From the IMG/VR virus record IMGVR_UViG_3300030376_004022, positions 1 to 36,401 of that record: a stretch of DNA of 36,401 bases. One strand, written 5' to 3'. The stretch comes from a virus. Lineage: Duplodnaviria > Caudoviricetes. Below the pieces are notes generated by a model that was not told the DNA's origin, did not search any database, and worked only from the letters and a program-made list of their open reading frames with translations. Of this stretch, positions 527 through 30,363 are shown piece by piece. The position numbers and the translations under genes were made by a program. How positions within the stretch are numbered: position 1 is the first letter of the stretch; every line of letters begins with the position of its first letter.

Positions 527-2572
527 TCACCCATTGTTCACCCCCGGCAGCTTGTCATAATCAACGAATAATCCTTCATCAGATCGCCGCCGAACTGGGT
601 TCTTATACTCATCTGAATACAGGACGCCGGACTGTTGCCACGCTCGAATGATGGTTTTTGCTGCGCCATCTGCGATGCCCATTTGCACCAGCACTGTGCC
701 GGCCCAGCGTGAGGCAGACCTTTGGGTCCAGGTGTAGCGTTGGCCGTCGTCCAACCCCTCGCCAATCAGCAGCAAAGCACGCCGCGCACCATCAACGCCC
801 AGCCCTTCGAATGGGTCAGGCGGCGCCCAGGGCGCTAAAACGCCAACATAATCGCCCTGCATTAACTCAACCGAATGCCGCTCAAACCACACGGCATCCT
901 TACTGGGTGCGCTCATATTGCCCTTGGCGTCATCGACGCGGACGTACCAGCCCTTGCGCTGCGGATCGATGTCAAACGCCTCTGCCTCTTTGTCTGACAT
1001 CGGTGTAATGGTCCGCGCCGATCGCACGGCACCGGCCAAAGCGCCGGCGCCTCGCGCAGTGTTGATATCTCCTGCTGTCGCAACAAACCCGGACGGCGGC
1101 TTGCGGGTGTGATGGACAAGATCAATGGCCGCACCGCAGCGTTTGGCTACATCAGCAAATACATCAAGCACCGCATCGATCTGCTTGTTGTCATTCTCTT
1201 CTGCGTAGTGTGCCTTCACCAACGGATCGACCTGGAGCAGCCCGATGTCCAGCCGCTGCATCTGTTCAATTACCTGCTCCGCGGCCACTGTCGGCGCCAC
1301 AATGCCGTCAGTTGGCTCGGCCACAATCATCTTGCAGTCGCGGCCACTGTCCAAGAACAGCCAGCCTTCAAGCTCCACAGGCGGAATATCAAACCGCTCG
1401 CATATGGCCCAGGCACGCCGCAGCAGCTCGTCGCGAGGATCTTCCAAGTTGTAATGCCACACACGAACCCGCTCCCGCACTGGAACGCCTAACAGGTCGC
1501 GCCCGGTCGCTAATGCAATGGCCTCAGTCAGTTCGAGCGTCGTCTTGCCCACGCCACCCGGCGAGACGGTAGCCGACACATAACCACGGATTAGATGCTT
1601 GCCATACAGCCACCGCCGCGGCTCAACGCCGCGCATGTCGGCAGCGGTGAACCCTGACGCCATAACGCGCACGATGCGAGTCTGGACCCCCTCCAAGACC
1701 GCCTCACGGCCCTCCGAAACCCACACGTCGTTCCAATCGGCACCAACCTCGTCCGGCATGACGATGTAGTCCGGCTTCGCCTTCCTCGCACCGTCCATGC
1801 CCGCACCGCTGGCGTCGTTATCAGCCGCGACAACGATCTCAGCGCGCGGCCACGCGGCCCGCAGTCCTTCCACCACCGGCGCCAGGTTGCCCGCATCAAA
1901 CGCGCACACTGCACACGCACCTGTCGCCTCATATACAGACGCCGCGGTCGAATAGCCTTCGGCGACATAGATCACGCCCTGCGGGCGCCCCAGCATGAAG
2001 AAGCCGCCCTTCTTACGTCCGCCGGCCAGAAACCGCTTCTCGCCGTCAGCCCCAATGGTCTGGTGCGAAATCACCTGCCCGGAACCATCGACAATCGGGA
2101 TCAGCAGCTTGTCGCCATCCAGCAGCAACCCGTGCGATCCGACCTGCTTGGCTACCAGGTAAGGATGATCGACCGCGAACTCTGCCGCAGCGATGTCCTG
2201 CTCCGCCTGGGCCGCTGCCTCAATGCGTCGCGCTTCGATCTCTGCCGCTTGGCGCTCACGCGCAAGCTGGATGTTGTGCTTCTCAACAATGGTTAGCGCG
2301 CCAGCCTCACGGCTGCACCATGTTTGCTGACCACGTCCTGCCTTCCATGAGCCGAACGACCCGTACAGGATGCCGTCCAACTCGGACAGCACATACCAGC
2401 CCGACGTATTCTTGCCGCGCGCCTCACCGTCCGCGACCCGGTGGATCTGGTCATCTGCCACTGCCACGCCAGCCAGGCGCAGACCGAACGCGGACGCCGC
2501 GTCCGTAAAGTCGCGCACCGCTTCCAACCCGCTTACCTGCGGGCGTATAATTATCTCAGGTATCGCGACCAC
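527..2572 (-). CDS. Primase-helicase (Toprim domain plus RepA/AAA_25-type helicase)
   Basis: Toprim motifs VAEGYSTA, AADND and DWND; Walker A SPGGVGKT; Walker B LLQVDP; VHHTRK and ARGAGAL motifs. Confidence 0.9.
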   Translation of the reverse strand: MVAIPEIIIRPQVSGLEAVRDFTDAASAFGLRLAGVAVADDQIHRVADGEARGKNTSGWYVLSELDGILYGSFGSWKAGRGQQTWCSREAGALTIVEKHNIQLARERQAAEIEARRIEAAAQAEQDIAAAEFAVDHPYLVAKQVGSHGLLLDGDKLLIPIVDGSGQVISHQTIGADGEKRFLAGGRKKGGFFMLGRPQGVIYVAEGYSTAASVYEATGACAVCAFDAGNLAPVVEGLRAAWPRAEIVVAADNDASGAGMDGARKAKPDYIVMPDEVGADWNDVWVSEGREAVLEGVQTRIVRVMASGFTAADMRGVEPRRWLYGKHLIRGYVSATVSPGGVGKTTLELTEAIALATGRDLLGVPVRERVRVWHYNLEDPRDELLRRAWAICERFDIPPVELEGWLFLDSGRDCKMIVAEPTDGIVAPTVAAEQVIEQMQRLDIGLLQVDPLVKAHYAEENDNKQIDAVLDVFADVAKRCGAAIDLVHHTRKPPSGFVATAGDINTARGAGALAGAVRSARTITPMSDKEAEAFDIDPQRKGWYVRVDDAKGNMSAPSKDAVWFERHSVELMQGDYVGVLAPWAPPDPFEGLGVDGARRALLLIGEGLDDGQRYTWTQRSASRWAGTVLVQMGIADGAAKTIIRAWQQSGVLYSDEYKNPVRRRSDEGLFVDYDKLPGVNNG

Positions 2573-4164
2573 TACAGCTTCTCCACGGCATCAATCCGCT
2601 GTCCGATCCAGCGCATCACATTGACCGCCATCGAATTGCCCAGCGCCTTGTACCGGGGACCATCAGGGCAGGCGTCAGCGTCCTTGCCGCGATACGGTAT
2701 CCGCGTCCAGTTATCAGGAAAGCCCTGCAGGCGTTCGCATTCGGTCGGCGTGAGGCGGCGCACAGACATATCTGGCTGCATCACACCGTCGTGCCTTCCG
2801 CCACCACCGCCACGCTGTACAGTGCCAGCGACATTTTCCGACGCTGTTAATTCTTCAGTCCAAGCAATCGGGTCGGCCACATAATCGCCGCCCTGGTTGC
2901 CGCCCACCGGCCCACCCGCCATGAGCGGCTGCGACACGTCAGTCTCGCGTGCCTTGTAGTCCTTGCCGCTGTTCATCGGCATGATGCTGTAAGCTGTCGG
3001 CACCAGCCCATGCTCATCACGAAACCCGGTGTGCGCGTCACCCTCTGATACCAGCGTCGGCGCTGTGTCAGGCACCAAGGGCGTGCCGCGCCCCGTGCCG
3101 TCCTCACTGGCATCAAAGCCTTCCGCGCGCAGGGCGTGAGTGACCGCCATATATGGCTGCTCATGCACCGTATTTAGCGTCGGCGCGACGTTCTCGCTAA
3201 ACGTCGCGTTCCATTGCCCATCGCTCGCGCAGATGATCTTATTAGCATTAACGTCAGGCACGAACATGCCGGCACCGTTCAGCGCGTGCTGGTCTTCAAG
3301 CCCCATTTTGTCGCCATACTTTGTATTTACCGTTGGCGAGACTTCGGCAGGCCAACTGGGTACAAGCGTGGCATCTTCATTTGGACTTTGTGCGTTGGAC
3401 GGGCTGGCGCCAAACGACGCCGCAACAGCTACCACCGCATCTTGCCCGCGCGTCTCGCCGGTGCGCTCCACCCCCCGGCCACTACTAACAAGAGCCGGAG
3501 AAACATCGTGCGTTATGTCGCCGGGGAACCCGCTACATTGGTTAGCGCCGACCGTAAGGCTGTCGGCAATTCTTTGCCGCGCTTCGCGGCGCGGCGCAAT
3601 ATGCCCTGACAGGCTTTCGCGCTCAAAAAGTACCGCTGCGGCACGCCTCCAGTCTCCAATATATCCGACAACGAACACACGCCGTCGTCGCTGGGGAACT
3701 GCTCTGGCAAAGCCGTCCACTCGGACGTACTGAGCGTCAAGAACTCGGTAGGCGAACCCATACCCGAGTTCTGCCAGCCCTCCGAGTATGGAACCAAAGT
3801 CCCGTCCTTGTCCTGACGACAGGACGCCGGGGACGTTCTCCCAGACCAGCCACTTGGGCCGCAGTCTCTGAGCCAATCTAAGATATTCGAGTGCCAGGTT
3901 GCCGCGGTCGTCATCCAGTCCGCCGCGGAGTCCTGCGATGGAGAAAGACTGGCAAGGTGTTCCTCCGACCAGAAGGTCGATTGGCTCATATTGGTTTTCC
4001 TCAATGGTTGTAAAATCGCCGTGCAGCGGCACGTCAGGAAACCGATGCGCCAGCACGGCGCACGGAAACTTGTCAATTTCAGAGACAAAAGCGGCAGACC
4101 AGCCCAGCGGCGCCCACCCCACGGATGCGGCTTCAATGCCGGAACAGACGGATCCGTAAATCAA
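2572..4164 (-). CDS. DNA (cytosine-5) methyltransferase with a long variable region
   Basis: Motif I variant SVCSGIEA, motif IV GGTPCQSFS, VI WENVPG, VIII QRRRRVF, IX RRLTPTECERLQGFP, X YKALGNS. Confidence 0.93.
   Translation of the reverse strand: MIYGSVCSGIEAASVGWAPLGWSAAFVSEIDKFPCAVLAHRFPDVPLHGDFTTIEENQYEPIDLLVGGTPCQSFSIAGLRGGLDDDRGNLALEYLRLAQRLRPKWLVWENVPGVLSSGQGRDFGSILGGLAELGYGFAYRVLDAQYVRVDGFARAVPQRRRRVFVVGYIGDWRRAAAVLFERESLSGHIAPRREARQRIADSLTVGANQCSGFPGDITHDVSPALVSSGRGVERTGETRGQDAVVAVAASFGASPSNAQSPNEDATLVPSWPAEVSPTVNTKYGDKMGLEDQHALNGAGMFVPDVNANKIICASDGQWNATFSENVAPTLNTVHEQPYMAVTHALRAEGFDASEDGTGRGTPLVPDTAPTLVSEGDAHTGFRDEHGLVPTAYSIMPMNSGKDYKARETDVSQPLMAGGPVGGNQGGDYVADPIAWTEELTASENVAGTVQRGGGGGRHDGVMQPDMSVRRLTPTECERLQGFPDNWTRIPYRGKDADACPDGPRYKALGNSMAVNVMRWIGQRIDAVEKL
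3513..3989 (-). CDS. Nested alternative-frame ORF inside the methyltransferase gene (M.EcoHK31I beta-like, 158 aa)
   Basis: ATG at 3989 with GAGGA Shine-Dalgarno upstream; WQNSGM...CSLSDILETGGVPQRYFLSAKACQGILRRAAKRGKELP resembles my recollection of the EcoHK31I beta polypeptide. Confidence 0.6.
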   Translation of the reverse strand: MSQSTFWSEEHLASLSPSQDSAADWMTTAATWHSNILDWLRDCGPSGWSGRTSPASCRQDKDGTLVPYSEGWQNSGMGSPTEFLTLSTSEWTALPEQFPSDDGVCSLSDILETGGVPQRYFLSAKACQGILRRAAKRGKELPTALRSALTNVAGSPAT

Positions 4165-6815: not shown

Positions 6816-7560
6816 TCTTCTCATCCTTCTGTGTGATTGCGTTCATCAACGCCGCCCATTCGAGCGGCAGTTCTTCGGGGATTTGGTATCGGGTCTTAGC
6901 GACGAAGTTGGGCCGCGATGCACAGCGCAGGACGCGCTCGCCAGACCCAACGGCCTTGACCTTCTTCTGTCCGAACGACGATGTCGTTTCGCGTGTCGTC
7001 ATCTTGTGGTTGGCAAAACCGACGACGTCGCAGAACTCCGTGTACAAATCGGATGCGCGCTTGTGCAGCTTGATCTCGAACCGATCGAAGGCTTCGGTCG
7101 TCGGATCTTCAAACCGCTTGACTTGGCTATGCGCCAGCAGGACGCACGCCATGCCCTTTTCGCGCCGCAACTGCGTCAGCTTGCCAAGCAATGCCCGGTG
7201 CTGGGACAAGGCGGCGACGTATCCCTTGCCATACCCCATGTCCTCAATCGAATTGAGCTTGTTCTCTTCACAGACCGTCGCCCAGGTCAGCGCCTCAAAC
7301 CAATCAAGGCTGTCAATCGCGACGACCTTGTATTCGTGCTTCTCTTTGATCAGTTGATCCAGCGCAGCCATCACCGCGCCGGTGCTTTCGCACAGGTCAA
7401 AGCGGTCAACGCCGACAACGTCAGCGCCTTCCTCAGTCGGCACGAAGATCGCGTGCTTGCCGCTACCGGCTGCGAACGTCGTCTTGCCTACGCCCGGCGG
7501 GCCGTAGATCAGAATGCGGGGCGGCGCCATTGCCGTTCCGCTCGTTATGTTAAGAGTCAT
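6808..7560 (-). CDS. Sak4-like AAA_24 ATPase (recombinase)
   Basis: IYGPPGVGKTT, IDSLDW, GYGKGY, LLAH, AKTR. Confidence 0.85.
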   Translation of the reverse strand: MTLNITSGTAMAPPRILIYGPPGVGKTTFAAGSGKHAIFVPTEEGADVVGVDRFDLCESTGAVMAALDQLIKEKHEYKVVAIDSLDWFEALTWATVCEENKLNSIEDMGYGKGYVAALSQHRALLGKLTQLRREKGMACVLLAHSQVKRFEDPTTEAFDRFEIKLHKRASDLYTEFCDVVGFANHKMTTRETTSSFGQKKVKAVGSGERVLRCASRPNFVAKTRYQIPEELPLEWAALMNAITQKDEKNG

Positions 7561-7885
7561 CAGATTTTCCTTTCTCTCTCTTCAACAATTCCAAGACGAC
7601 GGCCTCGCGCAGCACCCACAGGCGCGGCGATCGATCAGCGCGCACAACCACGATGTCGGCGTCGTCCTGATCAAAGGCGTCCATAATTATTTTGAAGCCG
7701 TTCTTGCGGCGCTTGCATTCGATGCGCAGCCCTTCCACGACCACGTCGCCGGCAAACTCTTCGCCAAGCTGCTGTTTGAATGCGCCTGAACCGAAGATGC
7801 GTTTCGCTTCCAGCCCGGCAGCTTCGGCAGCCAGCACGACCTCGCGCTCTAACTCGTAGCCGCGCTGTTTGTTCCGCGCGCTCAT
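7550..7885 (-). CDS. Hjc-like Holliday junction resolvase
   Basis: KQRGYELEREV...GDVVV...IECKRR, a PD-(D/E)XK pattern. Confidence 0.75.
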   Translation of the reverse strand: MSARNKQRGYELEREVVLAAEAAGLEAKRIFGSGAFKQQLGEEFAGDVVVEGLRIECKRRKNGFKIIMDAFDQDDADIVVVRADRSPRLWVLREAVVLELLKREKGKSDDS

Positions 7886-28781: not shown

Positions 28782-28809
28782 AAAAAGAGAAGGGGGGCCG
28801 AAGCCCCCC
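28782..28809 (-). terminator. Terminator after the capsid genes
   Basis: GGGGGGC-TTCG-GCCCCCC followed by TTCTCTTTTT. Confidence 0.75.
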
Positions 28810-28816
28810 CACCCAA

Positions 28817-29311: not shown

Positions 29312-29573
29312 TTACTCGTTGCACGCAATTTCAACGACCATGTCTTCCTGCATCCTAGTGCTACCGAACGTGGCGCAGTAGTAAACTTGCGTGGAATAAG
29401 ACTTGTCGCTGCGTTCATCGATGCGAGCCATCACATCTTTGCCGATTGCCAGCTTGCAGCCATCCTGCGCCCATGCGTAGCAAAGGCGAGAAGTGCCATC
29501 GTCTGACAGACGATTAGAAGTGATGAACTTGAAACCGACAAACGTGTCGATGTCACCCTGTACAAGTGCCTTC
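29312..29573 (-). CDS. Major capsid protein, exon 2
   Basis: (V)KALVQGDIDTFVGFKFITSNRL...IDERSDKSYSTQVY...GSTRMQEDMVVEIACNE*; no start or RBS of its own. Confidence 0.88.
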
Positions 29574-29767
29574 CGTCACACTTCGGCTTTCGCCGCCAGC
29601 TTTTGCTGTTCGTGCGCTGGACTTTCTCTTCATCTCGATGAGATGCTGCCCGTCAAGTCTCTACACCTTCCGCTTTCGCGGCTTGGCTCGGGATTAGCAT
29701 TTTAAAGCCTTCCCCGAATTTGAGCAGTTTTCGTCTGACCGTCGCCGATCAGATAGGCAAAGTGTTT
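29574..29767 (-). ncRNA. Group I self-splicing intron (IC3-like, 194 nt, no ORF)
   Basis: Upstream exon ends in U and intron ends in G; core elements AAAUUCGGGGAA, AAUCCCGAGCCAAG, AAGGUGUAGAGACU, AAGAGAAAGUCC; P1-P9 can be paired by hand; removal restores the reading frame. Confidence 0.92.
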
Positions 29768-30363
29768 ACCGTATTGAAATCACTTGAAGTTACAGAGGTC
29801 GTGTTGAGCAGGTCTTCGATCTGCTCGGGGCTGACAACGATATAACGCGGAATAGATGGATCAACGCTTTGGGCGTCGAGCAGCTTTTTCGCGGATACCA
29901 GCTTGGCAACCGTTAGGCCGGCAGAACCATGTGCGATTTTCTGGCCGCTTGGGAACGCCGTAGAGGTCGTTCCTTCCTTGCCGGTCTTCGCGGTTCCACC
30001 AAGTGCGCTGATGATGGTGTCGTCCATCGCACGACCTATCGCCGCCGCAGCCGCACGGGCATACGAGGACGTCGGGTCGATCAACATACGAACCTTGTCA
30101 GCATCGTCAATCAAGTCAGCCCATTCGTAAGTGGTTAGGCTGACCATACGCCGAGAGTGTGGCGTCTCGACGAGGGGGGTATCCCCGTGTCTTGACGACC
30201 GCGCTACTGCGGCTGCTTCTCCGACTTGGTCGAAGAAGGCTTTTTCGCCGGTGACACTTTCCGTATCAACGGCTCCTCGCAACAGACTTCCCATCTGCTG
30301 CGAGAGCATAGCGACGTTGGAACTGAATTGGTTCACAAACGCCGTATTCACTTGAGTACTCAT
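29768..30363 (-). CDS. Major capsid protein, exon 1 (spliced product 285 aa)
   Basis: MSTQVNTAFVNQFSSNVAMLSQQMGSLLR...AIGRAMDDTII; AGGAG RBS; position after the scaffold gene. Confidence 0.9.

Follow-up and report, generated by a model that had tools for sequence, protein, structure and literature searches.

As set out in the available parts of the accounts cited here and below, the 205-nt intron of the Azoarcus BH72 pre-tRNA-Ile is a group I intron of subgroup IC3, as are the tRNA-Leu introns of Anabaena and Synechococcus (PMC3895272, PMC4498298). The Azoarcus ribozyme performs best in a design with an anticodon stem, with less than 2% splicing from an mRNA in E. coli (PMC3895272). In the Anabaena intron, the short P1 is stabilised by the anticodon stem, which may also keep inhibitory pairings from forming (PMC3895272, citing Zaug 1993). 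P5abc and P7.1/7.2 are marks of IC1/IC2 and IA2 (PMC4498298, PMC11835236). In phages, group I introns have already been published in the major capsid protein genes of crAss-like phages (PMC7886860), and those of the Jug phages average about 206 nt, with metatranscriptome support for 37 of 76 (PMC12363816). Most viral group I introns, more than 50%, fall in subgroup IA2 (PMC11835236), which bears out the contrast that a first-pass annotation of the present locus had drawn between its intron and the usual introns of phages. Further sources served as background only (PMC11878797, PMC3984707, PMC12350094, PMC6125680, PMC7913685, PMC10580990, PMC6487183, PMC12880540).

The DNA analysed, called the window below, is a whole virus record of 36.4 kb with a G+C content of 57.3%. 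Genes for terminase, portal, scaffold, capsid, tail tube, internal virion, integrase and primase proteins were read in it, and the sequencing runs that contain parts of the region are labelled marine. The capsid protein belongs to the HTVC010P type, with 62-69% identity to those of 21 pelagiphage records. Its gene lies on the minus strand, to which all features of the intron and exons described below belong, as exon 1 (29768-30363, 596 nt; phrog_3437, PF19821), which ends in the GU of Val200, and exon 2 (29312-29573, 262 nt including the stop codon). Between them sits an ORF-less group I intron of tRNA type (IC3-like) at 29574-29767, 194 nt long with its terminal G at 29574, and contigs from RNA libraries skip exactly this span. 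The unspliced ORF encodes 204 aa, and excision yields a capsid protein of 285 aa. Among 20 in-frame U/G junction choices near the intron, only removal of 29574-29767 restores the reading DFNTVKALVQ, which occurs in 75 of 105 homologs of at least 270 aa among the best 120 listed; the other 19 junctions conflict with the homologs and were rejected. The two capsid halves match the PHROG 3437 profile end to end (profile positions 3-205 and 203-292), and the spliced protein is colinear with uninterrupted homologs, the closest sharing 96.5% identity to either side of the junction. The first-pass annotation had placed the intron and its junction, drawn the helices and predicted the 285-aa product as they are found here. 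Ten database proteins, the window's own included, terminate in N[T/A/S]LPI as the unspliced ORF does, so that further gene calls are cut short by this intron too. Elsewhere in the window, a C5 DNA methylase of 530 aa (2572-4164, minus strand) matches Pfam in two parts and exceeds the family profile in length, possibly through an insertion. After the gene that follows the capsid gene, a G+C-rich hairpin with a pyrimidine/U tail (28789-28810, minus strand) resembles a terminator, and a promoter and terminator scan gave nothing special beyond it.

The genome record holds a single match to the group I covariance model RF00028, at 29606-29777 on the minus strand, with an E-value of 4.6e-10 and 50.3 bits, which is marginal against the cut-off of 50. 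The intron folds with a z of -3.66, and 0 of 200 shuffles were equally stable. Across 20 distinct introns at the same site, the drawn structure pairs in 99.0% of cells and 29 of its 55 pairs have changed on both sides, a level of compensation that none of 500 shuffles reached; slid controls paired at 25-42%, a comparison in which the structure has the advantage of being drawn from the window's own sequence. With a model match above the cut-off and this degree of covariation, the insert is indeed the group I intron that had been proposed, and the features of the group that were seen are a P3-P9 core with a guanosine site in P7, a U.G pair at the 5' splice site, a terminal G and a P10.

In P1 (29756-29770), which is invariant in 20 of 20 introns, the exon bases GGU (29770-29768) pair with the guide GCC (29758-29756), with U.G at the 5' splice site and a 3-bp extension. 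The G at exon position -3 that P1 needs is present at 24 of 25 intron-bearing junctions versus 16 of 210 intronless ones, and the sole intron-bearing junction without it holds a different type of intron whose guide matches. P10 (29570-29762) joins the guide CUUU (29762-29759) to the first four bases of exon 2 (29573-29570) and covaries, with seven distinct guide/exon combinations and 19 of 21 positions paired against a permutation mean of 14.9 (p 0.005). Compensatory changes were found in seven of the eight pairs of P2 (29734-29753), which carries a GCGA loop of the GNRA kind, and in five of the six pairs of P3 (29727-29722 with 29651-29646), which encloses, within 29646-29727, P4, a P5 region of just 14 nt with P5abc absent, P6 and P6a. 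P7 (29661-29655 with 29624-29619), with a bulged A, and P8 (29645-29631) occupy 29619-29661 and are supported by covariation, as is the branched P9 domain (29577-29616), which is closed by P9.0 and includes a GAAA-capped hairpin at 29595-29584. The guanosine-binding site is assigned to the G-C pair in P7, which we take to be its established place in group I introns. The link between P7 and P3 is 3 nt, with P7.1/P7.2 absent. The L2 tetraloop tracks P8, as the GNRA-receptor rule leads one to expect: GCGA goes with CU:AG (8 of 8), GCAA with CC:GG (2 of 2) and GAAA with an internal-loop P8 (9 of 10). The P8 receptor of the window is plain helical, the internal-loop motif, presumably the IC3 receptor ('IC3 motif'), occurs in 9 of 18 distinct capsid cores, and the canonical 11-nt receptor is not present in the intron. 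P10, the covariation of L2 with P8 and the exon-exon helix described below go beyond what the first-pass annotation had described.

The explanation in which we place strong confidence is that the capsid gene harbours a group I intron, free of ORFs and with a core resembling that of bacterial tRNA introns, which likely splices itself from the capsid mRNA, likely with the help of a helix between the two exons that co-varying silent codon sites preserve. By standard group I chemistry, guanosine would bind P7 and attack after the U.G pair, and exon 1 would then attack after the terminal G, restoring the 285-aa frame. Since unspliced RNA would give only the 204-aa fragment, splicing is needed for capsids. 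As in tRNA introns, only three pairs of P1 involve the exon, and the guide is able to mispair with exon 2 (+3 to +7). The exon helix may tie the exons together and block this mispairing, in the manner of the anticodon stem of the Anabaena and Azoarcus introns.

The two strands of the exon helix, recognised by complementarity and covariation, lie at positions -19 to -14 (29781-29786), in codons for Ser-Ser-Asp, and at positions +6 to +11 (29563-29568), in codons for Ala-Leu-Val. The mean energy of the exon duplex is -9.8 kcal/mol for 43 intron-bearing junctions versus -5.0 for 138 intronless ones, the median z against synonymous shuffles is -2.1 versus -0.04, and 51% versus 6% of the junctions beat such shuffles at p<0.05. 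Where the serine in question has an AGY codon (38 of 43 intron-bearing and 118 of 138 intronless junctions), the third positions of Ser and Ala form a Watson-Crick pair in 35 of 38 (15 U-A, 20 C-G) against 38 of 118. Over distinct combinations, 30 of 40 wobble pairs held in the intron-bearing set, where 0 of 20000 permutations were as high, against a permutation p of 0.087 in the intronless set; the second wobble pair is the weaker (12 of 20 distinct combinations). At least eight different versions of the helix, in two registers, are perfectly paired. On an exon tree built without the helix codons, the Ser and Ala letters of intron-bearing alleles undergo 9 and 10 changes, which amount to 10 changes of the pair state, whereas the 23 and 23 changes in intronless alleles amount to 41. 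As two intronless sets were gathered by motifs that favour the helix, the contrast with the intron-bearing junctions is conservative.

In the folded natural precursor both P1 and the exon helix form. When the 5' strand of the helix is removed, the predicted probability of P1 in the window falls from 0.94 to 0.47 and that of the guide/exon-2 mispair rises from 0.00 to 0.41, and P1 is predicted to be more probable with the strand in 50 of 50 alleles, in a calculation that allows no pseudoknots (P3/P7 ignored) and takes truncation of the flank as its control. Several alleles of this site, at codon 200, have a weak helix (L470, L464, L509 and L001). The signs that the helix strengthened after arrival are mixed, with a Spearman rho of 0.49 (p 0.0009) across 43 alleles and a p of 0.11 in a group test of 5 against 38. 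Among six introns of the same type at other capsid sites, five had no exon helix in the flanking spans tested (p 0.24-0.97). By analogy, the exon helix likely takes the place of the anticodon stem that the introns of Anabaena and Azoarcus require. This co-varying helix is what the finding adds; in the literature covered, with subscription titles mostly outside its scope, neither IC3 introns of phage capsid genes nor an exon helix or surrogate stem in an mRNA were described.

Introns at the same site measure 188-210 nt at 65 of the 68 loci of one scan, 37 of them distinct and none with room for an ORF; of the other three loci, two are cut by contig ends and one fell outside the search expression. 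The first-pass view that the intron is among the smallest natural group I introns was thus overstated, as bacterial tRNA introns of 193-194 nt (ARAGORN; L124, L227) and the Jug-phage average given above (PMC12363816) also indicate. Scans of 24 and 37 ORFs found no homing-nuclease family in or near the intron, and a distant, sub-threshold PDDEXK_15 match lies at 7553-7885. The intron is present in 18 separate clades of the exon tree (13 changes). Between the near-identical alleles L470 (with intron) and L016 (without), the junctions differ only at -3, +1 and +4, and two further pairs of this kind differ across about -30 to +16 (L521/L076) and at -33 to -3 (L497/L003). Nine pairs combine an intron identity of at least 93% with an exon identity of 80% or less. 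These patterns fit transfer at the DNA level with short co-conversion, and the intron may have spread by recombination that took along about 5-45 nt of flank, a possible driver being a nuclease acting in trans, for which no candidate was identified. Introns of this type are also inserted near codons 48 and 53, there too behind a GGU, a hint that the guide may direct movement to new sites.

The same capsid family holds a second, longer type of intron, IA-like and about 225-265 nt, with stems between P7 and P3. It is found at about ten other capsid sites (L015, L082, L088, L092, L098, L108, L011 and others), L098 and L108 having up to four introns per capsid gene, and a 253-nt example with its own matching guide occupies the very insertion point of the tRNA-type intron (L021:3600-3855). 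The cultured pelagiphage HTVC120P carries an unannotated 197-nt intron of tRNA type (L232:2457-2653, equal to MH598807.1 19609-19805) that divides the capsid gene between gp29 and gp30; without it, the encoded protein has 325 aa and is 92.6% identical to the intact one of HTVC309P. This intron scores 67.9 bits with the tRNA-intron profile, gives no RF00028 match at E 0.01, and has no exon helix in the span tested (-3.0 kcal/mol). The capsid gene of Chosvirus KM23-C739 (L233, KT997847.1) has unannotated RF00028 matches at 2446-2626 and 3155-3335, with 77-78 bits.

The intron might be active and the exon helix still have no role in splicing, the pairing being either flank that hitch-hikes with the intron or a matter of mRNA folding or target recognition. 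The short flanks that moved with the intron in the L521/L076 and L497/L003 pairs do include the helix strands, and the helix is absent at most other sites and present at 14 of 138 intronless junctions. Nevertheless, the many perfectly paired versions in two registers, together with about ten joint changes on the tree, need selection on pairing, and the intronless alleles are without the coupling seen in the intron-bearing ones, so that a helix with no splicing role appears somewhat unlikely. Taking the helix as an aid to splicing, we lean towards a broader account: a tRNA-type ribozyme lineage would have settled in the capsid mRNAs of widespread marine podophages, the exons of the main site would have evolved the surrogate anticodon stem that it needed via silent positions, and intron and stem would travel as one nuclease-free cassette.

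Splicing in the cell could also require the help of a protein, from host or phage, or of the adjacent RNA context. Such help would accord with the poor splicing of the Azoarcus intron from mRNA in E. coli (PMC3895272), and with the very short P5 and the lack of a canonical 11-nt receptor. Against this, the core is intact, the L2-P8 contact co-varies, and the intron persists in 18 exon clades of varied G+C, hence probably in varied hosts; a need for helpers is in our estimate unlikely, and an intron that splices itself remains the preferred reading.

The kinship of the core with tRNA introns was examined in a bacterial comparison set chosen with the P4 motif of the window, a choice that inflates the similarity. 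The motif has an estimated ~4000 matches in bacterial genomes; among the matches listed, introns of tRNA genes called by ARAGORN hold it in 110 of 120 bacterial loci, and ARAGORN called a tRNA in 0 of 32 capsid loci. In this window-derived set, the closest cores belong to tRNA-Leu introns of Carnimonas, Parvularculaceae and Rhodobacter and to a tRNA-Arg intron of Bartonella, with 88-91% identity over 90 positions. A profile of 101 tRNA-intron cores gives the window 80 bits, T4 td -0.9 bits and T4 nrdB no match, and an IA-like profile built from 25 longer capsid introns gives T4 td and nrdB 55-61 bits and the window 35. The tRNA-type (IC3-like) core suggested by the first-pass annotation is in keeping with these comparisons, and the intron, judged by core similarity and by the absence of P5abc and P7.1/7.2, behaves as IC3 introns do and probably belongs with them. 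In four viral contigs (L091, L100, L101 and L103) the core motif lies within tRNA-Leu(UAA) genes, which might link the tRNA sites with the mRNA sites.

In a FastTree phylogeny of 138 cores (90 columns), 29 of 36 capsid cores form one clade (support 0.955) that adjoins 15 bacterial tRNA introns (support 0.739), and the other capsid cores fall in three further places. Such a clade of their own, in a tree that is short and arbitrarily rooted, and the poor fit of phage introns to the subgroups (PMC11878797) could be taken to place the intron in a lineage resident in phages and separate from IC3 proper, one that did not arise from tRNA introns. That the nearest neighbours are proteobacterial tRNA introns, with about 90% core identity, and that capsid cores stand, with moderate support, in four places among tRNA introns, make this quite unlikely. 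As the root is arbitrary, the direction of transfer from tRNA to capsid can only be inferred; on that reading, a tRNA intron would have colonised the capsid mRNA.

Spliced joints were sought in 8 of the 23 RNA-library runs listed, the evidence consisting of contigs and not of reads. Two of the eight, from two studies with metatranscriptome labels, contain an exact 194-nt skip on an intron-bearing haplotype, for which intronless twins are possible; the other six had no joint across the junction. Contig X1, of 1155 nt, is labelled metatranscriptomic cDNA yet flagged 'probably DNA' by a tool, and it skips exactly 29574-29767 with at least 255 nt on either side. It has the haplotype of the intron-bearing L090, sharing all 17 exon-2 variants at 29366-29540 and the five listed variants of exon 1, and the two have equal variant counts (18) over 29768-30174. 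Contig X5, from rRNA-depleted RNA-seq of the other study, skips the same span and agrees with the intron-bearing L449 at four of four variants, with a joint that has only 28 nt on its short side and a depth of 3.6. X2, in which exon 2 is joined to an exon-1 end with 4 of 28 positions unlike the window, was rejected as splice evidence. Short RNA pieces from inside introns (X5, X11) carry many differences and probably derive from other introns.

In DNA scans able to catch both forms, all alleles whose exon is at least 90% identical to the window near the junction carry the intron, the nearest intronless alleles being 75-87% identical there, and the haplotypes of X1 and X5 were found only with the intron. 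L485, with the intron, and L064, without it, are viral DNA contigs with identical junctions, and the joins in the RNA libraries might therefore stem from an intronless twin that went unseen; splicing in vivo is accordingly likely rather than proven. That the insertion is dead, with the capsid gene broken, the phage defective or complemented and the joined RNA contigs derived from intronless relatives, is very improbable, for although 68 of 81 capsid regions of relatives are uninterrupted and one intronless allele with an identical junction exists, exon 2 is still 96.5% identical to intact homologs, P1, P10 and the core co-vary in 20 distinct introns, 37 distinct introns share the site, and the window has no second match to the capsid query.

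This capsid gene contains a real and probably active intron of tRNA type; the kind is known, the host gene less usual, and the intron not unusually small. IC3 ribozymes of tRNA type depend on the anticodon stem and splice badly in mRNA (PMC3895272), and these phages look like a natural solution to that problem. Dozens of alleles record which exon pairings stay, and they offer a direct test of group I movement between tRNA and mRNA as well as a clear case of selection for RNA structure at synonymous sites of an essential gene. Compact ribozymes adapted to mRNA are of possible use in circular-RNA or trans-splicing work. On the practical side, capsid genes of a marine phage group, that of the cultured HTVC120P included, have been mis-called as split or truncated.

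Among phages, the crAss-like (PMC7886860) and Jug phages (PMC12363816) resemble the window in that group I introns interrupt their late or core genes, and differ from it in being gut jumbo or crAss-like phages, the window being a 36-kb marine podophage. No IC3 assignment or exon helix was found in the available parts of these two accounts, and 'IC3' does not occur in the main text and the parts of the supplements available for the Jug phages (PMC12363816). T4 td and nrdB and the IA introns of Bastillevirinae (PMC11878797) have in common with the capsid intron the group I chemistry and a conserved, essential phage host gene, whereas phage IA2 introns carry P7.1/7.2 and usually a homing endonuclease (PMC11878797), neither of which the capsid intron has. 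The HTVC010P-type pelagiphages (PMC8477408) and the window share a similar gene set, including an integrase and a cysH-like gene; in the available part of that account the word 'intron' is absent. The G+C of the window, 57%, lies outside the 29-36% that defines these pelagiphages (PMC8477408), so its host is probably not SAR11.

Nearer to the capsid intron in core sequence are the proteobacterial tRNA-Leu(UAA) and tRNA-Arg(CCU) introns (Williams 2020, 10.1101/2020.01.27.920355), at the 88-91% identity over 90 core positions given above for the window-derived set; these lie within anticodon loops, and most of them exceed the capsid intron in length, at about 200-260 nt (ARAGORN). With the Azoarcus and Anabaena introns, the former represented in the sequence comparison by the betaproteobacterial CAU-tRNA introns L168, L185 and L191, the capsid intron shares a compact ORF-less core, a P1 of three exon base pairs plus an extension, the lack of P5abc and P7.1/7.2, and GNRA loops at L2 and L9. 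Unlike them, it resides in a phage mRNA and has a branched P9 and a very short P5. Reliance on exon-exon pairing, shown for the Azoarcus and Anabaena introns, is inferred for the capsid intron, whose exon helix is written in synonymous letters and has its 5' strand 13-15 nt from the splice site, against 3 nt in the tRNA.
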